The notes beneath the pieces were generated by a model, which saw only the letters and a program-made list of their open reading frames with translations, ran no database searches and was not told where the DNA came from. Both the position numbers and the translations under genes were made by a program. A DNA stretch of 64,000 nt. It comes from Longimicrobiales bacterium. GTDB taxonomy: Bacteria > Gemmatimonadota > Gemmatimonadetes > Longimicrobiales > Gaopeijiaceae. Position 1 is the first letter of the stretch, and each line of letters opens with the position of its first letter. The stretch covers positions 2,421,814 through 2,485,813 of the forward strand of contig OZ244837.1 in NCBI GenBank assembly GCA_965220675.1, given 5' to 3'. This document shows, in pieces, positions 2-34,331 of the stretch.

Positions 2-2635
2 GGCGAGACGGTGGGCCGGAAGCTGCAGGAAGTCAGGACGCTCGGAGCGCGCTTGCACGACGCCGTGGCCCGCTGGCCGGACGATCCGCAGCAGCATCTT
101 GACCGCCTGACCGAGCGTTCCGACGAAGCGACGCGGCACGCCCGGGCCCTGGCCGGACTCCGGGAGCGGGCCGAGCACGCGCGCGACACCCTGCGGCAAT
201 CCGATGCCGTTATCGCGGCGGCTCAGCACGTCGACGCGACGGTCGCGCCGGAGGCGATGGACAGGCTCACGGCCAGGCTGGATCCCGTGGCAGAGGCCCG
301 GCGGCGCATTGACGCCCAGCAGGCGGAGCTGGAGAGCCGGCACACCAGCCTGAAGCGCGACCTGAACAGCATCCCGACCGACGACGGCCCCGACCATCGC
401 ACAGTTGCCCAGGCCTCGGCCGCGTTGGGTGCGCTCCCGGAACAGGCCGAACGGGCGATCGAGGACGCCGGCAGGCTGCGCGCGCTTATCGCCGACGAGA
501 CCAGGGCCAGCAGGGACGCGGACAACTTCCTGCGAACGCTCGAAACCGCGAACGACCAGCTGGCGCGGCACGCGGTCCAGGAAGCGCCCCTCGGAGATGC
601 CGTCAAGGCCGCCCGTGATCGTGTGACAGGTACCGAGGTCTTGTATGACAAGTGCGACGAATTGCTGAACCGTCTCCTCTCGACGCGTGGCGAGCGGGCC
701 AGGCGGCGCGAGGAGATTGCCGACATCGAAGCGCGGCTCGCCTCAGCGGCAACCGAGGAGGGTCGCGCGAAGGACGAAGCCGGGCGGGCGGACGCGGCGC
801 TGGCCTCCGCGCAGCGCAGCAATGCCGCGGCGGCGGCCGCCCTCGGCTTGCACCCGGGCGACGAGTGTCCCGTTTGTCGGCGCGACCTGCCCGCGGGATG
901 GACCGCGCCGCCCGATCAGGGGCTTGACTCCGCGCAGCAGACGCTCGAGGCGGCGCGGTCGCGGGTGCGCGACCTGAGCAGAACCGCGGCCGGGCTCAAG
1001 GCACGGGAGGAATCCGCGCGGCAGACGATGGCGGACATCGAGAAGGGGCTGGCAGAGCGCGGCTCCGAGATGGCCGCCGCGCTGGAGCGGCTGCGTCACG
1101 CCGCCGGGTTGGAGGAACCCCTCTCGCGCGCGGATGACGGGCCGCTCCCCGATCGGGAACAGATTCTTGCGCCGGTGCAGCGACGGCTCCGCGCCGCTGA
1201 GGCCAGGCTGGACGAGCACAGCAAGGAGGCGGCGAGCCTCCGCGAGGCGCAAACGCGCGCCCGGATCGGCGGGAACCTGGCCCAGCAGTCATTAAAGCAG
1301 ATCCGGGACGACATTCGCTCGACCCGCGACGCTGTTCAGTCCGCTGTGGACGGTCTCAACCGGAACATCCAGTCCATTCCTTTGTCCTTCCGTCCTCGCT
1401 TGGTCCTCCCTCCCGACCCTGTTGAACTTGAAACCGTGGACACCACACCCGTCGACCGTGCGCTGTACGCAGTCCGGGAGCGCGAAGCGATCCTCCGGCA
1501 GCGCGAACAGGAGCGCGACCGGCTGCGCACGGGCATCGAAGAAATGGGAGCGGCGCTGAAGCAGGTGGGCGAGATCCGCAAGACCGAAGTCGAAGCGCCG
1601 CTGCAGGCGATTGTGCGCGCGGTTGGCGACCAGCGGACCGCGCTGGTTGAGGCTGTCCGCACATTGAGTTCCGGATCAAGCTCCGGCGAGCCCGGATGCC
1701 GGTCCCCCGCCATCGCGATTCCCGCCGTTCTCTACTATCCGGTCGAGACGGATGCTCTCCAGGACGGGATCGACCGGCTCCGCGAGGCGATGGCCGAGAC
1801 GCTGACCTTGGCGGCGGACCTCCGTCGCGGCGCCGTCGCCGCCGCGGACGCAGCCCGGCAGGAAGCGCGCAAGATCGCCGGCCAGCTGGACCCTGCCACC
1901 GACGCCACCGATCTCGACGCCCTGGTTCAACGCGCCGCCGCGCTTGCCGACGACGCCCGTTACATTGCCCGGGACGCGCAGCGCGACCGCGACGTATTCG
2001 CCACAGTCCTCGACGATGTCCTGGAGCTGCGTGATACCGCCGACGAAGTCGCCGCCCTGGAACTCGCGCTGGGTGACCTCGACGCCGCGCTCAAGCCGGG
2101 GGCATTCCTCAAGTGGCTCACCCTGCGGCGCTCGCGCGACCTCCTGGTGTATGCGTCCCGGATGCTGGAGGAGATGACCGGCGGCCGCTACGCGTTTGCC
2201 GACCCGGGCGACCACGAAGACCAGGAGTGGCTCGTGGTTGACAGCGACTCCGGCGAGGCGCGCTCCCCCGCCAGCCTCTCCGGCGGAGAGCAGTTCATCG
2301 GGTCGCTGGCGCTTGCGCTGGGGATGGTCGAGATGATGGCCCGGAGCGGCGGCCGCCTCGAGTCGCTCTTCCTGGACGAGGGCTTCGGGTCGCTCGACCG
2401 CAGCAACCTCGACTCCGCCATCGAAGCGCTCTCGACGGTGTCGGGAAGGGGCCGGCTGGTGGGCGTGATCTCCCACGTTGCTGCCGTCGCGGAACAGATC
2501 GACGATGTGCTCGCCGTGACGCGGACCGCATCGGGCAGCCAGGTGACATGGCTTTCACGCTCCGAGCGGCACGAGCTTGCACGTGGCGACACCGGTCTGG
2601 AGGGAGCTTCGGCGCTGGCGGGGCTGCTGGAGTAG
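2..2635 (+). CDS. SbcC/Rad50-like SMC-family ATPase, C-terminal part; the 5' end is cut by the window edge
   Basis: The reading frame is open from the window edge. It has a long Ala/Arg/Glu-rich coiled coil and a CxxC zinc hook (GDECPVCRRDL). The ABC signature is LSGGEQFIGSLALALG and the Walker B is SLFLDEGFGSLD, with a D-loop/H-loop (VISHV). No N-terminal P-loop is present, so the N-terminus lies upstream of the window. Confidence 0.8.
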   Translation, partial: GETVGRKLQEVRTLGARLHDAVARWPDDPQQHLDRLTERSDEATRHARALAGLRERAEHARDTLRQSDAVIAAAQHVDATVAPEAMDRLTARLDPVAEARRRIDAQQAELESRHTSLKRDLNSIPTDDGPDHRTVAQASAALGALPEQAERAIEDAGRLRALIADETRASRDADNFLRTLETANDQLARHAVQEAPLGDAVKAARDRVTGTEVLYDKCDELLNRLLSTRGERARRREEIADIEARLASAATEEGRAKDEAGRADAALASAQRSNAAAAAALGLHPGDECPVCRRDLPAGWTAPPDQGLDSAQQTLEAARSRVRDLSRTAAGLKAREESARQTMADIEKGLAERGSEMAAALERLRHAAGLEEPLSRADDGPLPDREQILAPVQRRLRAAEARLDEHSKEAASLREAQTRARIGGNLAQQSLKQIRDDIRSTRDAVQSAVDGLNRNIQSIPLSFRPRLVLPPDPVELETVDTTPVDRALYAVREREAILRQREQERDRLRTGIEEMGAALKQVGEIRKTEVEAPLQAIVRAVGDQRTALVEAVRTLSSGSSSGEPGCRSPAIAIPAVLYYPVETDALQDGIDRLREAMAETLTLAADLRRGAVAAADAARQEARKIAGQLDPATDATDLDALVQRAAALADDARYIARDAQRDRDVFATVLDDVLELRDTADEVAALELALGDLDAALKPGAFLKWLTLRRSRDLLVYASRMLEEMTGGRYAFADPGDHEDQEWLVVDSDSGEARSPASLSGGEQFIGSLALALGMVEMMARSGGRLESLFLDEGFGSLDRSNLDSAIEALSTVSGRGRLVGVISHVAAVAEQIDDVLAVTRTASGSQVTWLSRSERHELARGDTGLEGASALAGLLE

Positions 2636-2650
2636 CGGGCCGAGTCGTCC

Positions 2651-3349
2651 TCAGTTCCCCAGCCGCGCCAACGCTTCCTGAGCGTCCTGATTCCCCGCGG
2701 CCGCCGCCCGCGCGTACCAGTCGCGCGCGGCATCGAGGTCGCGGGTCGCTCCACGGCCCGCCTCATATGACTCGCCGAGCCGTAGCTGTGTGATCGCGTC
2801 GCCCTTGTCTGCGGCGAGCGTCCACCATTCCACCGCCAGGGCGGGGTCGACGGCCACCCCGCGACCCTCGCTGTACTGATTCCCGATGTTGTGCGCGCCC
2901 AGGACGTGTCCGCGTTCTGCCGCCCGTCGGTGCCACAGCGCCGCCCGCTCGTGGTCGACCGGCTTCCCCAGACCTTCGTCGAAGGCTGTACCCATCAGGA
3001 ACACGGCTTCCAGCACACCCGATTCGGCCGCCCGCTGGACGTCGCGGATCACTCCGTCGGCGATTTCGCGAGCCTTCTCCAGATCGTGGGGAAACCCCAT
3101 GCGGCCAGTGGAATGGACCCGCGCCAGCCACATCGTGGCGAGCGGGCCTCCGCCCTCGATCGCCTCATCCAGCAGCGCCCGGGCGCGGTCGTTGTCCACC
3201 GAGCCGGCGACTCCGGTGTACCAGTCGATGGCTTCGAGGAGGACCGGGTCGGGCTCCTGCGGGGCGCTGAGGCAGGCGACGGCAAGGACAGCGGCCACAA
3301 CCGGACGTCGCAGTGTGAGAAGCGAGAGAGGCTGGGTGGCTTTTGACAT
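2651..3349 (-). CDS. Sel1-like (SLR/TPR) repeat protein, probably an exported lipoprotein
   Basis: It carries repeated Sel1 motifs (GxxYxxGxGVxxDxxxAxxWxxxAAxxG), for example NIGNQYSEGRGVAVDPALAVEWW and LGESYEAGRGATRDLDAARDWYARAAAAGN. The N-terminus is hydrophobic with a lipobox-like LAVAC. The ATG is at 3349. Confidence 0.8.
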   Translation of the reverse strand: MSKATQPLSLLTLRRPVVAAVLAVACLSAPQEPDPVLLEAIDWYTGVAGSVDNDRARALLDEAIEGGGPLATMWLARVHSTGRMGFPHDLEKAREIADGVIRDVQRAAESGVLEAVFLMGTAFDEGLGKPVDHERAALWHRRAAERGHVLGAHNIGNQYSEGRGVAVDPALAVEWWTLAADKGDAITQLRLGESYEAGRGATRDLDAARDWYARAAAAGNQDAQEALARLGN

Positions 3350-3431
3350 TACCTATTCCATGTTGGACCCGAAAACAGATATAGCGAGACTCACTGTTGT
3401 GAAAACCTTAATAGGCGACAGGCCTGCCTTC

Positions 3432-4091
3432 CTAGTCGGTCCGGATCGTGCAGGGTCGCCAGTTTCGTGTCCAGTGCTGATCGGTTTGAACGTGATCCTC
3501 ACGCACACTCTTGCAGACGTTGCGGGCGAAATCCGCCGAGGGGAAGCCTTCTGCCACCCGTACCACGACGCCCTCGCGCTCACCGCCGAGCGCTGATGGC
3601 TTCGCATGCTCGCCTCGAATGAACGCCCGCATCTCGGCGACCGAGGCGAACGAACCCCGGTGGATCACGGGAACAACAGAGATGCCCCGTTCAGCCGCGA
3701 ACTCCTCAAGGGCTGCGACTGACCGAAAGTCCCCCTTCGAATCCCGCAGGGCGAACGCATGGAACGTCTCGTCCTCCCTGACGGCTCCATACTCGATGCT
3801 GTGCACGCCGTAGATGTCCTCGCCGTAGAGGTAGACTTCCGGCTCGGTGACCTTCCAGGCGTGATGCTTCTTTACCATGGCCATCCACTTGTTCGCCGAC
3901 TCGGACGCGACGGAGCGCCCGTAGACCTTGCCTCGATGGATCAGAACGTTGGATCCATCGAGCTTTTCGGTCACGACGACCGGGCGCCCGACAAGCCACT
4001 CGGGATCGGGGTGAACCGTGTCGCCGCGGCCGATTGTCGGTGAGTAGGGCCAGTAGGGAGTGCGGGGGTATTTGAGCCTATTGGGAAGCAT
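3432..4091 (-). CDS. Minimal ATP-dependent RNA ligase (nucleotidyltransferase domain only, Rnl2/PF09414-like)
   Basis: Covalent nucleotidyltransferase motifs appear in the correct order: I TEKLDGSN, III VYLYGEDIYG, IIIa FHAFAL, IV REGVVVRV, V CKSVRE. The N-terminal KYPRTPYWPYSP is typical of this ligase family. I chose the ATG at 4091 (MLPNRLKYPRTP); the 4154 alternative would overlap the upstream gene by 77 nt. Confidence 0.7.
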   Translation of the reverse strand: MLPNRLKYPRTPYWPYSPTIGRGDTVHPDPEWLVGRPVVVTEKLDGSNVLIHRGKVYGRSVASESANKWMAMVKKHHAWKVTEPEVYLYGEDIYGVHSIEYGAVREDETFHAFALRDSKGDFRSVAALEEFAAERGISVVPVIHRGSFASVAEMRAFIRGEHAKPSALGGEREGVVVRVAEGFPSADFARNVCKSVREDHVQTDQHWTRNWRPCTIRTD

Positions 4092-4590
4092 GGTCGCCGC
4101 GCGACTTCTCAGGACGGGTCGCGTGTTCAGGGCACAGTTGCCGCACATCCACATCCAGTTGATCGGTCAGCTCGCGATGCTCGTTCCAGTCCGAGTCGGA
4201 GGCATTCACGATCACGGCATCGGCCTTGAGGGCCACCGCTAGGAACTTCGCATCCTTCTTCAGATTGTTCGGCGGCAGAATTGGGTCCGTGAAGTCCCTG
4301 CCCTCATCGTCGCGCGGCCTGACTGGAATCAGGCGGACTCGGTTTGAGTCACCCATCTTCTGCCAGACGTGCTTGTAGAAGATCGTACCCGGTCCTGCTT
4401 GTCCTGCGTGTGCGATCCTTTTCCCGTACTCGCCCATGATGAGTCCCTTGTCGTCGACACACACAACCTCCTCACGCGCGAGCCTTTTCAATTCCTCCAC
4501 GCAACTCTCTTGACACCCTTCGTCGACATGGGTGTCTCGACCGTTAGCTGCGACGAGGACATTAGTGTCTACAACCGACCTGCCAATCAT
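4078..4590 (-). CDS. PIN-like domain nuclease (predicted RNase)
   Basis: The N-terminal VVDTNVLVAA carries a PIN acidic residue. The later acidic positions are in DAKFLAVALKADAVIVNASDSDW. Its ATG overlaps the stop of the upstream ATPase (ATGA at 4587-4590), and its 3' end overlaps the ligase start by 14 nt. Confidence 0.6.
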   Translation of the reverse strand: MIGRSVVDTNVLVAANGRDTHVDEGCQESCVEELKRLAREEVVCVDDKGLIMGEYGKRIAHAGQAGPGTIFYKHVWQKMGDSNRVRLIPVRPRDDEGRDFTDPILPPNNLKKDAKFLAVALKADAVIVNASDSDWNEHRELTDQLDVDVRQLCPEHATRPEKSRGDHASQ

Positions 4591-6011
4591 CGCGACCGAT
4601 CCGCCAGCTTGCGGCGCAGGGTGGCGGAGCTGATCGCAGCGATCTCCGCCATCTCGTCCCCGAAGAAGTCATCAGGCCAGTTCTCAATTTCTCCCCAATG
4701 GTTGAGGCGCAGATCCTCCAGCTTCGCGACGCCCCTCGACACAGAAGAGAAGTAGAGGCGCACATCGTCCGACGAGATGGCGAACGGGGAACTGGATCCT
4801 TTTCCCGGTACTGCCACCTTTCCCTCCGCGACACGTCGCTGGAGTCGTTGCAGCAAGTGCTGGCTATGTGACTCAACGATGACCTGAAGGTTGCGGTGCT
4901 TCGCGACGCAAAGCAACAAGTCTGCCAGCCGGCTCTGGACGGCAGGATGCAGGTGAATCTCGGGCTGCTCAAGCAGTATCACGGAATCCTCGGGCACATA
5001 GTACAGAAGGACCAGAACAGGCAGGACTTGGGAGACACCGAACCCGACATCCGTCAGGGTGGTGGATGTCTTGGATGAATTGGCCGTCAAGCGCGCTTGA
5101 TAGAGGTTGGAGGCGGTTCCGATCTCCTCCATCGAGAACCGATCGATCAACCCGAGTTCTCTGAGCCAGTGCGCGATTACCTGCTGAAACGGCTGGTTGT
5201 GGGCGCGTTGCTTGAGTTGACGAGTCTTTCCTTGCGCTGTGGCAGCCAGAATCGCGTCGATGGCCCGCTCGCCCCGGGTTCCGACATCCGAGGGGCTTGC
5301 GCCGCTCCAGTAGTATTGCCGTTGAGGATAGTCTCGTAGTGGCCCGAGATAGTAGATGCGATCCATTAGGCTTTCGTATGACAGCTCCAGGTCGCTCAGA
5401 AAATCGGCGTTCTGGTAGGACCACCGAACCTGCTGCGGGAACGCATGAGTCTTGACGGGTGGGGGGATCCGGAACGGACGTCCCTGGCTCCGCTTGAGCG
5501 CAAAGTCATGGTGCCCGCCAGAAATGTTCAGCGTGTAGGCGCGCCTCTTTCCGCCGTCGGAAGGTTGGAGCGAGAAGATTGTGTCATCGAACTGGTAGCC
5601 CAGGTTGCGCGTGAAGAAAGTCGATGATGGCCGAGATCCCGAGAGGCCGACGGTGCAGTGAATGGCCATTTCGCGGCCCGCGAAGCTCACCGACTTCCCA
5701 CCGGCCGATTGCGTGGCAATCCTGAGGAGCTTGGGCAGAGTCCAACCGAGTTCCCAGCTGATGTCTGAGTCGGTGTTGTGGCCATGGGCGACTTCGCGGA
5801 AGCTGCCGAGATTCGCCAAGCTCTCGGGGCCGCCAAAATCGAGGACGATGCGGCGGTCCGTGGCCTCACGGGTCTGCTTGAGGAGTAACAGGAACTGTAT
5901 GAGACTGCTCTTCCCCGCGCTGTTGGCGCCGAAGATGCCGGTCACGGTCGCGAACCGGATCTTCAGTTCCCTCCATGCCTTGAAATTGGTCAGCCGAAGC
6001 CGCGTAATCAC
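4587..6011 (-). CDS. ABC/OLD-class AAA ATPase with a DUF3696-like C-terminal domain
   Basis: The N-terminal RLRLTNFKAW plus Walker A GANSAGKSS matches the RecF/SMC-like AAA_15/21 type. Walker B is VILLEQPEIHLHP and the H-loop is VESHS. The C-terminal NWPDDFFGDE tail is as in DUF3696 proteins. It has a GTG start at 6011 with AGGAGA 9 nt upstream. Confidence 0.75.
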   Translation of the reverse strand: MITRLRLTNFKAWRELKIRFATVTGIFGANSAGKSSLIQFLLLLKQTREATDRRIVLDFGGPESLANLGSFREVAHGHNTDSDISWELGWTLPKLLRIATQSAGGKSVSFAGREMAIHCTVGLSGSRPSSTFFTRNLGYQFDDTIFSLQPSDGGKRRAYTLNISGGHHDFALKRSQGRPFRIPPPVKTHAFPQQVRWSYQNADFLSDLELSYESLMDRIYYLGPLRDYPQRQYYWSGASPSDVGTRGERAIDAILAATAQGKTRQLKQRAHNQPFQQVIAHWLRELGLIDRFSMEEIGTASNLYQARLTANSSKTSTTLTDVGFGVSQVLPVLVLLYYVPEDSVILLEQPEIHLHPAVQSRLADLLLCVAKHRNLQVIVESHSQHLLQRLQRRVAEGKVAVPGKGSSSPFAISSDDVRLYFSSVSRGVAKLEDLRLNHWGEIENWPDDFFGDEMAEIAAISSATLRRKLADRSR

Positions 6012-6100
6012 CGTGCACTCTCCTGAGCTTCAGGGACAGGTAGCCAAGCCAATCTAGCCGGACGGAGCATCACCCGGAGAACAGTAGCCAGCGCTTGACC

Positions 6101-6835
6101 TCAGACCAGATCCTCCCCCGCCAACCCCAGTCGCTCCAGCACCTCCGGCGGCGGCCCATCGAAGCTGGGGAGCGGGATGTTGCCCACGTAGCCCAGGTCG
6201 CGCATCCCCTCTTCCGTGGTCCAGAACCCGGTCGACACCATGTCGCGGAACTGGTCGAAGAAGCGCGCCTGCGGCTTGAGGTCGGCGGGCGCGTCGGGCT
6301 CGAAGCAGATCTCGTCGCAGATCTCGTGCTTCTGCGCCAGCGTGAGGGCGGGGAAGTCGTCAGCGCCGAACCGTTCCCGAGCGCTGCGGTTCAGCCACGC
6401 CACGCCGCCCCGGAGCGCGATGAGGCTCTCCTCGTGGCCGGGTGCCGAGACGAATTCGTTGACGTAGTCGGGCACGCCCAGGGCGCTGGCCGCCGGTGAC
6501 CGGTCGTCGGCCGGGATGATCACGTCGGCCAGCGCGGAGACAAGCCGCATCTCCTCGTCGGTGAGCACCATCTCCCAGGGGACGACGGGCGCCAACATGT
6601 CCGGATCGGTCGGCGTGCCGGCGGCCATGGGGTTGCTGGGGGGCAGCGGATCGAAGCCCGACAGGGTCTCGTGAGCGGACTCGGCCGATTGTGCGGCGTC
6701 TTGCGGCGCGCACGAGCCGGCTGCGCCGAGGGCTGCGCCCGCAGCGATCACCTTGAGCGCGCCGCGTCGGGAGATCGCTCCGCCGGCGGGCGCGGCGCCC
6801 GACTCCGGCGGGCCGCCCTTCGGATCCTCGCTCAC
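6101..6835 (-). CDS. Gluconate 2-dehydrogenase subunit 3 (gamma)-family protein with a Tat signal
   Basis: It has a twin-arginine motif (SRRGALKVIAAGAALGAAG). The GTG start at 6835 overlaps the stop of the GMC gene (GTGA). Pairing with a GMC flavoprotein is typical of this family. The 47-codon N-terminal extension in the track is Arg-rich and unlikely to be real. Confidence 0.7.
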   Translation of the reverse strand: MSEDPKGGPPESGAAPAGGAISRRGALKVIAAGAALGAAGSCAPQDAAQSAESAHETLSGFDPLPPSNPMAAGTPTDPDMLAPVVPWEMVLTDEEMRLVSALADVIIPADDRSPAASALGVPDYVNEFVSAPGHEESLIALRGGVAWLNRSARERFGADDFPALTLAQKHEICDEICFEPDAPADLKPQARFFDQFRDMVSTGFWTTEEGMRDLGYVGNIPLPSFDGPPPEVLERLGLAGEDLV

Positions 6836-8610
6836 CCGATGCTCCTTTGCCTGAGCTGCTCGACGATGTAGTCGCTGGCCCGCCACGCGATCGCCATGAT
6901 CGACAGTGTCGGGTTCTTGTCCGCGTTGGACACGAAGGGCGCGCCGTCGGTGACGAACAGGTTGGGCACGTCCCACGACTGGCAGAACTCGTTCAGCACC
7001 GAGGTGCGCGGGTCTTCACCCATCATCGCGCCGCCCACTTCGTGGATGATCTGCCCACCCTTCGAGATGGCCTGCTCGCCATCGGTGTGAATCGTCGACA
7101 GCACCTGTCCGCCCATCTCGTCCACGATCTCCGCGAAGGTCTGCTGCATGTGCACGGCCTGGCGCAGTTCGTGGTCGGCCCACTTCCAGTGGAACTTGAG
7201 CACCGGAATCCCGTAGCTGTCCACTCGGTCCGGGTCGATCTCGCAGTAGCAGTCCTCGTTGGGGATCATCTCGCCGCGCCCGTCGAACCCGAGGAAGCTG
7301 CCGTAGTAGCGGCGGCAGTCGTCCTTGAAGCGCTGGCCGTAGCTGCCGTTCGTAAGCGGCTCCACCCCGCCGAATGCGCCGAACCCGGGCATGCGCCGCC
7401 CGCCGCCGAACTCGATGTGGTAGCCGCGGGGGAAGTCGAGCCGGCCGGCCAGCTGCTCGCCGTACAGCCACCACGGCATGTACATGTGCATCGCGGACGC
7501 GCCGTCCTCGTTGTGCGGAGGGAGCGCCTGGAGCGCCGGAATGTGGGCCTGGACGCCCGCGCCGACGGTGTCCATGACGTACTTGCCCACGAGGCCGGAG
7601 GAGTTGGCCAGGCCGTCGGGGAACATGCTGCTGGTCGAATTGAGGAGGATGCGCGCGGACTCGCAGGCGCTCGCGGCGACCACGACTACGCGCGCCGCGG
7701 CGAACTCGTCGACCAGCGTCGCCTTGTCGACGTAGTGGACGCCGGTGGCGCGTCCCTGCGAATCCACGGCGACCTCGCGCACCATCGCACCCGTGCGGAT
7801 CTCGAGGTTGCCGGTGGCGAGCGCGGGGGGGAACAGGACGGTCGTGGACTGGAAGTTGGCGCGGATCGAGCACCCGCGGCCGCACGGCGTCGCCCAGTAG
7901 CACGCGGCGCGTCCCCGCATCGAGTCGGCGGTCACGCGCCGGGCCAGATCGTTGTCGGGGAAGATCTCGCCCGGCAGCCGGTTGGGGTCCTGGGTCTGGG
8001 TGAGAATGGCCAGGTGGGCCGGAATCACCGGAATCCCCAGACGGCGGCAGGCCTTGCGGGTCAGCAACTCGTACGCGCGCGGCCTCGGCGGTGGCTGCAG
8101 CACCCCCGGCGACGAGTTCGGCGTATTCTCGAGCCCCTCGTTCGACCCGTATACGCCGATCAAAGCCTCGGTCCGGTCGTAATAGGGCGCCAGGTCCTCG
8201 TACGACATCGGCCAGTCGAAGCCCAGCCCGTCGCGGGAACGCGGCCTGAAGTCGTACTCGCCCATGCGCAGCGAGATCCGCCCCCAGTGGTTGGTGCGCC
8301 CGCCCAACATGCGCGAGCGCCACCACATGAATTCGGAGCCCTCGGCCACCGAATACGGTTCGCCCGGCACCTGCCAGCCCCCGTCCACCGTCGCATCGTA
8401 GAAGCCGAAGGGCTTCTCGGGCGTGCCGGCTGCGCGCAGGGGAGCATCCTTCGGCAGCTGGAACATCGGGGTCTCGCGAATCGGGTCGTAGTCCCGCCCC
8501 GCTTCGAGCATGAGCACGCGCAGTCCCGACGTGGCCAGTATGAAGGCCGCCATGCCCCCACCCGCCCCCGACCCGACCACGATTGCGTCGTAGACGGGGC
8601 TTTGGCTCAT
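6832..8610 (-). CDS. GMC-family FAD-dependent oxidoreductase
   Basis: The FAD fold YDAIVVGSGAGGGMAAFILATSGLRVLMLEAG sits directly after the ATG at 8610. The C-terminal GMC region contains HEVGGAMMG and NPTLSIMAIAWR. The upstream 152 codons of the track ORF are Arg/Pro-rich noise. Confidence 0.85.
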   Translation of the reverse strand: MSQSPVYDAIVVGSGAGGGMAAFILATSGLRVLMLEAGRDYDPIRETPMFQLPKDAPLRAAGTPEKPFGFYDATVDGGWQVPGEPYSVAEGSEFMWWRSRMLGGRTNHWGRISLRMGEYDFRPRSRDGLGFDWPMSYEDLAPYYDRTEALIGVYGSNEGLENTPNSSPGVLQPPPRPRAYELLTRKACRRLGIPVIPAHLAILTQTQDPNRLPGEIFPDNDLARRVTADSMRGRAACYWATPCGRGCSIRANFQSTTVLFPPALATGNLEIRTGAMVREVAVDSQGRATGVHYVDKATLVDEFAAARVVVVAASACESARILLNSTSSMFPDGLANSSGLVGKYVMDTVGAGVQAHIPALQALPPHNEDGASAMHMYMPWWLYGEQLAGRLDFPRGYHIEFGGGRRMPGFGAFGGVEPLTNGSYGQRFKDDCRRYYGSFLGFDGRGEMIPNEDCYCEIDPDRVDSYGIPVLKFHWKWADHELRQAVHMQQTFAEIVDEMGGQVLSTIHTDGEQAISKGGQIIHEVGGAMMGEDPRTSVLNEFCQSWDVPNLFVTDGAPFVSNADKNPTLSIMAIAWRASDYIVEQLRQRSIG

Positions 8611-8641
8611 GGCTGGTTCCCTGGTTGGTGCCGGTCGCGGT

Positions 8642-9535
8642 TCAGCTGTCGTCCGGCGGCGCGGGAGCGATCCGGTCGGCCCGGAAGGAGGGTATCTCGA
8701 AGATATACGGGCTGGCCGGGGTGGAGACACGGAAGTTCGCCTCCTCCTCCACGAGCGCGACGGCCGCAACCTCGTTTCCCGCCGCGTCCATGGCCTGCAC
8801 AATGCGGTCCGGCTCGTCCGGCATCTCGGCATCCTGCGGGGCGAAGCCGCTCGCCCGCAACCCCGCCAGCTCCTGCAGCATGTTGCGAACCGCTGTGGCG
8901 TCGGCCTCTTCATCGCCCGTCGTCCACGTCGAATCCTGGCGTTCGTAGACAACCTGCCGGCCGTCCCTCGTGACACGAATGCTCGCCACCGCGGCGGTAT
9001 CCGCCTGGAGAACGATCTTGTTGCGCCAGTCGAAAAGCGGCCTTGCCGCGGCCGAACGCAGGTCACCTTCGATCAGGCTGACCCGATCCGCGTCCGGCAG
9101 CCGTGCGTACGAAGTGCGGAAGCGATTGCCGGCATTGCCAAGAAGCACCGTTCCGGCGCCGTCGGCGGTCAGTGCCCATGCGTCGTCGGCCGTGACCCCG
9201 AGCCGCGCGTGATTGGCCGGATTCGTGGCGACGACCGCGGCCACTTCCACCTCGTCGATCGCTCTCAGAAAACGGGCAACGGCGCTCGAATCGGCCTCGA
9301 AGCCGTTGACGGTCCACGCATCTCCACTGCGCTCCAGGCGGATCGTGTCCTCTGGACCCGCGATCTCGACGACCGAAAGGCTCTCGCCGTCCATGTCCGC
9401 GAAGGCTCCCGCCAGGTCGGAATCCGTCGTGTCCGCCCCGCCCCCCCCGCCACCGCCCGCCAGGCGGGCCACCAGGTACAGCGCAACGACCGCGCCCAGG
9501 AACCAGATCGAGGCGCGCAGGGACTTCTCACTCAT
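8642..9535 (-). CDS. DUF4340 domain protein (accessory to a GldG-type ABC system)
   Basis: It has an N-terminal TM anchor and a Gly7 linker. Its position immediately after a GldG-like gene, with overlapping stop and start, is the usual DUF4340 context. Confidence 0.65.
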   Translation of the reverse strand: MSEKSLRASIWFLGAVVALYLVARLAGGGGGGGADTTDSDLAGAFADMDGESLSVVEIAGPEDTIRLERSGDAWTVNGFEADSSAVARFLRAIDEVEVAAVVATNPANHARLGVTADDAWALTADGAGTVLLGNAGNRFRTSYARLPDADRVSLIEGDLRSAAARPLFDWRNKIVLQADTAAVASIRVTRDGRQVVYERQDSTWTTGDEEADATAVRNMLQELAGLRASGFAPQDAEMPDEPDRIVQAMDAAGNEVAAVALVEEEANFRVSTPASPYIFEIPSFRADRIAPAPPDDS

Positions 9536-33896: not shown

Positions 33897-34331
33897 TCAG
33901 CGGAACGGGTCGCGCGTCTGCAACTCCGGGAACAACCCGAAATCACGATCCCGCGTGAGCAGCTCGTCGACACCGTGTGCCAGGCAAATCGCGGCCACGC
34001 GTGCGTCGTGGACGACCGGACCACGCACCCGGGGCCGACACACGAAGCGCTCGAGGATGGCGGGGAAGCGGCCTGTTTCGCCTATCAGCCGGTTCGATGG
34101 CGAGTCGGTCCAGGCCTGCAACTGGTTCCACGCCTCGTCCGGCGACGACTCCGCGCCGTGCCAGATCCGACGGTTGGTCACCACGCTGAGGAACTCGTAG
34201 CAGCACGGCCAGGGGATCGCCCATCGACGAGCACCCTCCGCCAATTCTCGCAGCACGCGGTCGGCCGCTTCGTGCACGCTGGATTCGCGACGGTGCGCGT
34301 ACACCAGAACGTTCGTGTCAACCGCGATCAT
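33897..34331 (-). CDS. vapC: Type II toxin VapC (PIN-domain ribonuclease)
   Basis: MIAVDTNVLVYA carries a PIN acidic residue, and the later acidic positions are in LLTRDRDF. There is an ATGA overlap with the upstream small gene. Confidence 0.85.
   Translation of the reverse strand: MIAVDTNVLVYAHRRESSVHEAADRVLRELAEGARRWAIPWPCCYEFLSVVTNRRIWHGAESSPDEAWNQLQAWTDSPSNRLIGETGRFPAILERFVCRPRVRGPVVHDARVAAICLAHGVDELLTRDRDFGLFPELQTRDPFR

Follow-up and report, generated by a model that had tools for sequence, protein, structure and literature searches.

A HEC-03 ATPase–PIN pair accompanied by a minimal RNA ligase gene in a Longimicrobiales bacterium

HEC-03 (Hma-embedded candidate 03, Hma standing for helicase-methylase-ATPase) was described by Payne et al. 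(bioRxiv 10.1101/2024.01.29.577857), and its tested form consists of two genes embedded in Hma, which encode an ABC ATPase with a DUF3696 domain and a VapC-like PIN protein. The tested pair, from Pseudomonas cichorii ATCC 10857, lowered plaque formation by orders of magnitude for at least two phages and required both genes, and the strain carrying it was left without isopropyl β-D-1-thiogalactopyranoside (IPTG) owing to apparent toxicity (10.1101/2024.01.29.577857). In PADLOC-DB, the ATPase model is called 'HEC-03B' and the PIN model 'HEC-03A', the letters being reversed in the preprint (10.1101/2024.01.29.577857). Here, we describe a locus of a Longimicrobiales bacterium in a stretch of 64,000 nucleotides (nt) of contig OZ244837.1 (positions 2,421,814 to 2,485,813), which was analysed as a whole and is referred to as the window. 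A block of three minus-strand genes at 3432–6011 encodes a similar pair, in the same order and with overlapping codons, but with an RNA ligase as third gene and located between housekeeping genes. Embedding in Hma is not found here; it is the context in which HEC-03 was discovered rather than something that the PADLOC models require.

Judged by its sequence, the ATPase–PIN pair is a member of HEC-03, and protection against phages by the present pair is presumed by analogy with the P. cichorii system. The word 'ligase' is absent from the HEC preprint and its supplements, and a literature search found nothing combining DUF3696 with 'RNA ligase'. Only the ligase-bearing form, undescribed in the literature searched, is new, the two-gene core being known, and comparative genomics lends this form unusually strong support.

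The three genes and their closest described relatives

The block comprises the following features, in coordinates of the window:

4587–6011, minus strand: ABC-type ATPase of HEC-03 with a DUF3696 C-terminal tail, 474 amino acids (aa), GTG start; presumed infection sensor and switch
4078–4590, minus strand: VapC-like PIN-domain nuclease of HEC-03, 170 aa; presumed RNase effector
3432–4091, minus strand: minimal ATP-dependent RNA ligase, 219 aa, nucleotidyltransferase domain only; accessory third gene
4587–4590, minus strand: ATGA overlap of the ATPase stop and the PIN start codons; translational coupling
4078–4091, minus strand: 14-nt overlap of the PIN stop and the ligase start, from the sequence and the supported ligase start

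The ligase was called as an open frame at 3432–4154 (minus strand), and the supported start is the ATG at 4091, which agrees with the N-termini of 26 homologues and with the public annotation, where the same 219-aa protein is called.

The ATPase matches the PADLOC model PDLC04148 over residues 1–472 of 474 (5e-182) and the Pfam families AAA_15 (5e-24), AAA_21 (1e-23) and DUF3696 (27.4 bits, cut-off 22), and its identity to the ATPase of the P. cichorii pair is 49%. Walker A (GANSAGKSS) and Walker B (ILLEQPEIHLHP) are both found, and the corresponding patterns G-x-N-S-x-G-K-S/T and E-Q-P-E are invariant in 89 ATPase homologues. At 4953–4964 (ATPase residues 348–351), Walker B thus reads E-Q-P-E and not the usual D-E-P-E, with a glutamine where the catalytic glutamate would be, a substitution also found in ABC mutants engineered to be hydrolysis-dead. 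The ATPase may act as an ATP-binding switch rather than through fast ATP turnover.

Related ATPases are known from several defence systems. The ATPase also matches NsnB of Menshen (NsnABC) at 4e-61, and the PADLOC models of AriA and GajA partially. NsnB shares the DUF3696 tail and was likewise reported with a degenerate Walker B, and its tail was predicted to bind the PIN-like domain of its partner (PMC12065111). However, NsnC carries a catalytically inactive PIN domain joined to a second nuclease, whereas the present PIN protein has a single domain with intact acidic residues. Menshen was rejected as an assignment, since no NsnA (ParB-DUF262) or NsnC-like gene adjoins the operon. PARIS AriAB, P2 OLD, the PtuAB proteins of Septu and retron Eco7, and PrrC/RloC similarly combine an ABC-type ATPase sensor with a nuclease, and several of them (PARIS, OLD, PtuAB) are described, in the accounts consulted, as cutting tRNA and thereby stopping translation. 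Their nucleases are of the Toprim, HNH or HEPN-like type, none being a PIN domain, and none of these systems comes with a ligase gene. PARIS itself was rejected because the AriA matches are partial and the partner is a PIN protein instead of the AriB Toprim nuclease.

The PIN protein matches the PADLOC model PDLC04147 over its full length (5e-47) and shares 40% identity with the PIN protein of the P. cichorii pair. Its acidic residues D8, E54, D113, D132 and D134 are invariant in 32 PIN homologues. The Pfam PIN family PF01850 is below threshold (15.1 bits against a gathering cut-off of 23.6) because its family has diverged too far for the Pfam model. The AlphaFold model of the protein has a mean predicted local distance difference test score (pLDDT) of 88.8, and the top Foldseek matches of this model are 1y82, 3zvk, 7vwo and 5ecw (PIN/VapC), HARP RNase P and SMG6, with probabilities of 0.95–1.0; the best PDB matches are PIN/VapC domains, with TM-scores of 0.45–0.57. 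Given the match to the HEC-03 PIN model, the conserved residues and the confidently predicted fold, the small protein is a VapC-like PIN domain despite the Pfam miss. A type II VapBC toxin–antitoxin module was rejected since the VapB partner is missing: no VapB antitoxin gene lies directly upstream of the PIN gene, where the 474-aa ATPase gene overlaps it by 4 nt.

The third protein matches PF09414 (RNA_ligase) at 80.2 bits (cut-off 27; 2.6e-22) over profile positions 2–170 of 171 and PHROG 24030 'RNA ligase' at 3.5e-32, and no PADLOC model matches it. The motifs KLDGSN, YGEDIYG, EGVVVRV and CKSVRE are found, and K43 (motif I), E91 (III), F113 (IIIa), E173-G174 (IV) and K194/R197 (V) are invariant in 91 homologues. 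The 219 aa are filled by the PF09414 domain, with neither the N-terminal OB-like domain of Rnl5 nor the C-terminal domain of Rnl2, and the match to TIGR02306 reaches 15.2 bits against a cut-off of 151, which places the protein outside Rnl5/Rnl2. A profile search of the PDB with a narrow ligase alignment returned nothing meaningful, and one with a broader alignment gave marginal matches only, to Trl1, Rnl3, NgrRnl (Rnl5) and T4 Rnl2 (5cot, 1s68, 2vug).

The ligase family comprises 1,479 cluster representatives at 50% identity, most of them stand-alone proteins of 210–230 aa. Its long relatives are the 'Swiss Army Knife' RNA-repair proteins, which combine two ligase domains with a 2H phosphoesterase, a kinase of the AAA_33/tRNA-ligase type and a PTP-type phosphatase; the present ligase is 33–39% identical to one of the ligase domains. 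Among the homologues that have been studied, Deinococcus radiodurans DRB0100 comes closest (32% identity), and it resembles the present ligase in its size of about 210 aa, in consisting of the adenylyltransferase domain only, in an N-terminal K-Y-P and in a C-terminal HVQTDQHW. However, the operon DRB0100-DRB0099-DRB0098 encodes a PARG-like macrodomain protein and an HD-Pnk end-healing enzyme and contains no ATPase–PIN pair. A further relative, a 374-aa 'RNA ligase family protein' that is 32% identical to the window ligase, is encoded at 3605–4729 of locus L204, on plasmid pANAM02 of the sponge isolate Bosea sp., about 640 nt from cas9 and on the opposite strand.

Nucleases and RNA ligases have been brought together before in other settings. 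Phage T4 Pnkp and Rnl1 act on tRNA cut by PrrC, so that there, too, an RNA ligase reverses nuclease damage in a phage–host conflict; in T4 the repair is encoded by the phage and needs an end-healing kinase/phosphatase, whereas here the host system carries the ligase and has no healing enzyme. A computational precedent for a ligase that neutralises a linked nuclease was given by Burroughs and Aravind (2016), as cited in PMC5499597. As summarised there, their PIN_3/ligase/ATPase/HNH operons contain a PIN_3/COG1569 nuclease, while neither the window PIN protein nor that of a distant HEC-03 relative discussed below (L158) matches PIN_3; these operons also carry HNH, while the window is devoid of an HNH gene and L158 has an HNH_2 gene after its ligase. 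HARP, a PIN-type protein-only RNase P, co-occurs and co-localises with the ATP-dependent RNA ligase Rnl3 (PMC12153264). HARP–Rnl3 likewise links a PIN-fold RNase, itself among the Foldseek matches of the present PIN protein, to an RNA ligase, but involves another PIN family and another ligase family, usually in divergent orientation and without an ATPase, and its proposed role is housekeeping or extremophilic.

An earlier account of the window, made from its letters without database searches (the sequence-only reading), had proposed most of this layout. Its three overlapping minus-strand genes agree with the coordinates and with the supported ligase start, and its ATPase, placed in the sensor class of PARIS, Septu and Gabija, passes Pfam for AAA_15, AAA_21 and DUF3696. 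In the profile searches that it had suggested, the ligase, said to stand alone with all motifs intact, equally passes for PF09414, and its PIN assignment is upheld by the PADLOC model, the invariant residues and the structural matches rather than by the sub-threshold Pfam score. PADLOC, also proposed as a check, recovered the ATPase and the PIN protein as HEC-03 and left the ligase without a model. Hence the statement that no named system has this composition holds, within the literature searched, for the ligase-bearing form but not for the ATPase–PIN core, which is HEC-03.

Distribution, joint inheritance and loss

A ligase-based scan with one genome per species yielded 244 relatives, among which the best 79 loci, with ligases 64–84% identical to that of the window, were examined. 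Conservation of the ATPase–PIN–ligase triad across unrelated genomes, which had been the key test of the sequence-only reading, was observed: 39 of the 79 loci carry a full-length ATPase and PIN gene directly upstream in the same order, and one more is nearly full. Twelve loci have nothing but remnants directly upstream (the N-terminal part of a truncated ATPase, pieces of the PIN gene, or both), and the ligase stands alone in 27. The triads are found in at least six phyla, their hosts including Gemmatimonadota, Acidobacteriota (Vicinamibacterales, Terriglobia and Bryobacterales), Alpha- and Gammaproteobacteria, Latescibacterota, Rhodothermales and Binatia. In each of the 41 full triads studied, the ATPase gene runs into the PIN gene, the overlap being 4 nt in 37 cases, and the PIN and ligase genes overlap in 14 of the 41 (by 14 or 4 nt), the median gap elsewhere being 16 nt. 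The triads contain neither a kinase nor a phosphatase gene beside the ligase. Trees were built by neighbour joining without support values, and the boundaries of the relatives' open reading frames (ORFs) were set by tblastn.

Searching with the PIN protein instead gave 80 metagenome loci, 47 of which reach far enough to be evaluated, and an ATPase gene lies upstream of the PIN homologue in all 47. The presence of the ligase follows the identity of the PIN protein to that of the window: it is found in 6 of 8 loci at 45% identity or above, in 1 of 11 at 38–45% and in 1 of 28 below. Of eight further PIN homologues on long contigs, seven have the ligase, the exception being locus L202. In the ATPase tree, every ligase-linked system falls in one clade, whose sister clades are without ligase, and among the clade members found through the PIN gene alone, a small sample (n = 16), the ligase is kept in 15. 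Moreover, the pairwise distances of ATPase and ligase correlate (Mantel r 0.81, p ≤ 0.0005). Because the ligase-linked ATPases form one clade and these distances co-vary, the ligase was captured once and then inherited and transferred with the ATPase–PIN pair as a unit. Between the two main sub-lineages of the clade, identity to the window is 64–70% for the ligase, 50–57% for the ATPase and 39–53% for the PIN protein; the better conservation of the ligase fits a conserved cellular substrate, as against a fast-evolving sensor and effector.

A second case comes from the distant HEC-03 relative L158, whose ATPase and PIN protein are 42% and 33% identical to those of the window. Its PIN gene overlaps by 4 nt the gene of a 245-aa PF09414 ligase (1.3e-30), which is 26% identical to the window ligase and finds its best matches in multidomain 'Swiss Army Knife' proteins (37–41% identity), most of them with two ligase domains. 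Since the stretch of these proteins that it matches strongly differs from the stretch matching the window ligase, the L158 ligase belongs to a different PF09414 subfamily, and it represents a second, independent recruitment of a ligase to the same position. Two ligase lineages at the same position are the strongest single argument for a functional link between the ligase and the pair.

As to the surroundings of these relatives, L158 contains at 559–6056 two tandem DUF3696 ATPase genes, the first with a 175-aa partner of unknown family and the second followed by the PIN gene, the divergent ligase gene and the HNH_2 gene, which looks like a small island of related systems. Some ligase-less HEC-03 relatives are followed by a Swt1-HEPN/DUF499 protein.

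The loss of the three genes is asymmetric. An intact ATPase–PIN pair is missing in 39 of the 79 ligase loci, as against a missing ligase in 1 of the 16 PIN-ascertained clade members (Fisher p = 0.0016). In four Longimicrobiales loci (L004, L006, L011 and L015), the ATPase and PIN genes are gone while the ligase is kept at the same syntenic site, and L015 retains the first 21 codons of the ATPase. Orphan and remnant loci are interspersed with triads across the ligase tree, which implies that the losses were many and independent, and the orphan ligases keep every catalytic residue. This pattern resembles that of orphan antitoxins or orphan methyltransferases, and it also shows that the ligase has a use in the absence of its neighbours. 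Clustering of the genes around orphan ligases revealed no alternative conserved partner, the only finds being HsdR-like type I restriction genes and Fic-motif genes at a few loci, both recognised by eye.

The orphan or remnant ligases of L030, L032, L035 and L039 lie directly downstream of two conserved genes (about 2000–6900), one of which encodes a 1001-aa protein that by eye resembles HsdR of type I restriction systems and the other a protein of about 400 aa with a Fic motif, 'HPFxxGNGR', likewise recognised by eye. If the HsdR and Fic recognition is correct, these four ligases are in defence-island contexts. On chromosome OY761542.1 (Pseudomonadales), an orphan ligase and a complete triad occur at different sites (L067 and L080), so some orphan ligases coexist with HEC-03 elsewhere in the genome.

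Homologues of the ligase are also found in viruses. They are present, at 31–53% identity, on 33 IMG/VR viral contigs (L162–L194), most of 150–530 kb, and in cultured jumbo phages, among them Atu_ph07, Phosso and the Caulobacter CcrSC group (GenBank, H16–H30). Taken together, the jumbo phages and other large viral contigs carrying the minimal ligase span 150–640 kb, an example being L165 at 3953–4642. The HEC-03 PIN gene is on none of the viral contigs searched. In L165, L166, L170–L172 and L175, the neighbours of the ligase gene resemble, by eye, a nicotinamidase and a nicotinamide mononucleotide adenylyltransferase, and four loci of this group show what appears by eye to be the N-terminal part of an Rnl5-type ligase. 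In L187, a viral 364-aa protein (3584–4678) has its PF09414 domain at residues 170–338, preceded by an N-terminal extension whose Cys/His motifs look HNH-like by eye and in which Pfam finds no HNH domain.

Genomic setting

Two non-coding stretches border the block:

6012–6100, minus strand: 89-nt intergenic region upstream of the ATPase gene; presumed operon promoter region, as the sole non-coding stretch upstream
3350–3431, minus strand: 82-nt spacer, from the sequence, between the ligase stop and the unrelated Sel1 gene, where the low-GC block ends

We infer that the operon promoter lies within 6012–6100; a scan of 3200–6300 found no match to a sigma-70 consensus promoter or to an intrinsic terminator. 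The flanks are formed by a gluconate 2-dehydrogenase subunit 3 and a GMC oxidoreductase on one side and by Sel1 and SbcC on the other, the Sel1 gene starting 82 nt downstream of the ligase on the same strand and the plus-strand gene at 11–2635 corresponding to the C-terminal part of SbcC. Both of these neighbours had been named by the sequence-only reading and are present, though not as parts of the module: Sel1 lies behind the ligase in close Gemmatimonadota relatives only, and none of the related loci contains SbcC. The expectation of a defence-island setting was not borne out at this locus, which is flanked by conserved housekeeping genes.

The guanine-plus-cytosine (GC) content is 58–63% over 3250–6000 against 68–72% on both sides, or about 10 points lower, which bears out the drop that had been estimated by hand. 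More generally, the GC content of the triad is below that of its flanks in 41 of 41 loci (59.8% against 67.2%). Horizontal acquisition, read earlier from this composition, is supported by the spread across phyla and by the foreign GC of all 41 triads. However, a recent single acquisition in the present genome was rejected, since many Longimicrobiales species carry the module at one and the same syntenic site, in the order ABC2, DUF4340, GMC oxidoreductase, gluconate 2-dehydrogenase subunit 3, [ATPase, PIN], ligase, (Sel1). In a search for flanking direct or inverted repeats, only short matches at chance level were obtained and no insertion scars were seen. Elsewhere, transposon or integrase genes adjoin several triads (L195 at 4409–5431; L196 at 1–742 and 6130–6480; L198 at 5088–6495; L200 at 1237–1425), the types encountered being an IS110-family transposase, a phage-type integrase and an rve-type transposase, which fits mobility of the module.

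No paralogue of the ATPase, PIN or ligase gene is found elsewhere within the 64 kb. Weak PIN-like similarity to the HEC-03 PIN protein (30% over 87 aa, E = 0.007) occurs at 34083–34325, which may be an ordinary VapC-type gene. In the GMC oxidoreductase region, very long ORFs overlap on both strands (6832–9066 and 6847–8973). The 744-aa ORF of this region overlaps the upstream gene and its orthologues have 592 aa, and its true start is probably well inside the ORF; the antisense ORFs are probably high-GC artefacts.

Possible roles of the ligase

The family assignment, the intact motifs, the linkage of the genes and their asymmetric loss point to a HEC-03 variant whose ligase would reseal the breaks made by its own PIN nuclease, an account to which we assign a probability of roughly 0.55. 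By analogy with related ATPase–nuclease systems, the ATPase would sense infection and hold, then release or activate, its PIN partner, and the DUF3696 tail could plausibly contact the PIN protein, as predicted for NsnB. We infer the following about the RNA that is cut, the ends that the present PIN enzyme leaves and the direction in which nuclease and ligase are functionally connected. The PIN nuclease would cut cellular RNA, most likely tRNA or rRNA, and thus stop translation, since related ATPase–nuclease systems cut tRNA and PIN proteins of the VapC type act as RNases. Catalysis by PIN nucleases depends on metal and yields 3′-OH and 5′-phosphate ends, which are the ends joined by ATP-dependent ligases of the Rnl superfamily. 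The triad ligase would accordingly be expected, from its family, to join 3′-OH/5′-phosphate RNA ends, and it could reseal the PIN breaks directly, without end-healing enzymes. Direct joining of such ends would explain triads with no kinase or phosphatase gene, unlike the DRB0100 operon or the 'Swiss Army Knife' proteins. In this role, the ligase would buffer leaky autoimmune cleavage in uninfected cells, permit recovery after an aborted infection, or both; buffering of a basal activity is relevant because HEC-03 is toxic when induced.

Resealing, the mechanism put forward by the sequence-only reading, is compatible with all of the comparative results, but several observations weigh against it. 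The ligase is not an obligatory antidote, since the tested HEC-03, most HEC-03 lineages and L202 lack it: among the evaluable metagenome loci it is present in 8 of 47 and absent from 39, and L202 lies within the ligase clade (its ATPase shares 74% identity with the ATPase of one triad) yet has no ligase. Orphan ligases evolve under the same purifying selection as triad ligases (dN/dS, the ratio of nonsynonymous to synonymous substitution rates, of 0.11–0.20 against 0.13–0.25, the values of the frameshifted orphans L004 and L039 being discarded), which implies that the ligase is useful without an adjacent nuclease. Repair would also seem to oppose a defence based on translation arrest, unless the repair is regulated or too slow to keep up. 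With DRB0100, a lysyl-AMP adduct was observed, yet none of the DNA or RNA substrates tried in vitro was ligated (PMC1997131), so that ligases consisting of this domain only may need a partner or a special substrate. The AlphaFold model of the present ligase, built on a 27-sequence alignment, has a pLDDT of 48.8 and is too poor for a fold search. In addition, the genome loci were picked through the ligase, and many are metagenome-assembled genomes from similar marine or sponge habitats.

Part of this evidence would suit an autonomous nucleic-acid repair gene that travels with the HEC-03 lineage and deals with other damage, such as that of foreign toxins or stress, with no tie to the PIN protein: about half of the ligase loci lack the pair and their orphans are under purifying selection, HEC-03 defends without a ligase, and DRB0100 belongs to a stress-induced repair operon devoid of a PIN gene. 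We consider such an independent role unlikely, because the ligase-linked ATPases form one clade in which both genes co-diverge, start and stop codons overlap in 14 of 41 triads, the ligase is kept in 15 of 16 clade pairs, a different ligase subfamily occupies the same position in a distant HEC-03, and the frequent remnants of the pair at orphan loci mark these as derived from triads. The asymmetric loss is also what would be expected of a mainly selfish addiction module, in which the ATPase–PIN pair is the toxin, the ligase its enzymatic antidote and the orphans anti-addiction genes, and the toxicity of HEC-03 on induction, the foreign GC in all 41 hosts and the IS110 transposase, integrase and other transposases beside several triads would agree with it. 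Yet the homologous pair is active against phages, one pair persists without ligase, and the Longimicrobiales module is stably syntenic on the chromosome with no obvious mobile element, which leaves selfish maintenance as the main function a long shot, although addiction and defence are not mutually exclusive.

Two further alternatives change the substrate or the purpose of joining. The ligase could serve the attack itself, either by resealing RNA after the removal of a nucleotide, which would create defective tRNA beyond repair by the phage, or by circularising or mis-joining phage RNA. The excision of the wobble nucleotide by RloC offers a precedent for a repair-defying nuclease (PMC2610378), and the homologous ligases of jumbo phages make an arms race over RNA ends plausible; nevertheless, an offensive ligase has little probability, as it leaves the selected retention of the ligase after deletion of the nuclease unexplained and there is no evidence of double cuts by VapC-like PIN nucleases. 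Even less can be said for DNA substrates, with a PIN-like nuclease that nicks DNA and a ligase that seals the nicks. The PIN-like superfamily does include DNA flap nucleases, and the radiation-induced DRB0100 originally bore the annotation of a DNA ligase (PMC1997131), but the predicted fold of the PIN protein matches VapC-type RNases, RNase P and SMG6 and not FEN-type enzymes, while the ligase belongs to PF09414, has fused relatives in RNA end healing and carries no OB or DNA-binding domain, making this explanation highly improbable.

Resealing of the PIN nuclease's own breaks remains the preferred account, and a broader proposal can be built on it, which we advance tentatively and with the odds somewhat against it. 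In this proposal, the ligase-bearing branch of HEC-03 would provide reversible, non-suicidal immunity, in which the PIN protein halts translation by nicking an essential RNA and the ligase acts as an antidote that undoes exactly that lesion; the orphan ligases would be stand-alone immunity genes against PIN-type RNA cutting, and the ligases of jumbo phages would be counter-defences able to defeat systems like HEC-03.

If this broader proposal is true, the ligase-bearing HEC-03 would be the first defence system with a genetically built-in reversal of the RNA damage caused by its own effector. Defences based on the cleavage of tRNA or rRNA are commonly regarded as abortive, with sacrifice or arrest of the cell. 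A widespread and jointly inherited form of a validated system with an RNA ligase of its own would offer a concrete case in which to ask how autoimmunity is kept in check and whether cells can recover from nuclease-based immunity. The system is small, with three genes in 2.6 kb, and its parent system works in E. coli. It would also link a large family of minimal RNA ligases of unassigned function to a physiological partner and a probable substrate, and would explain the presence of their homologues in jumbo phages.

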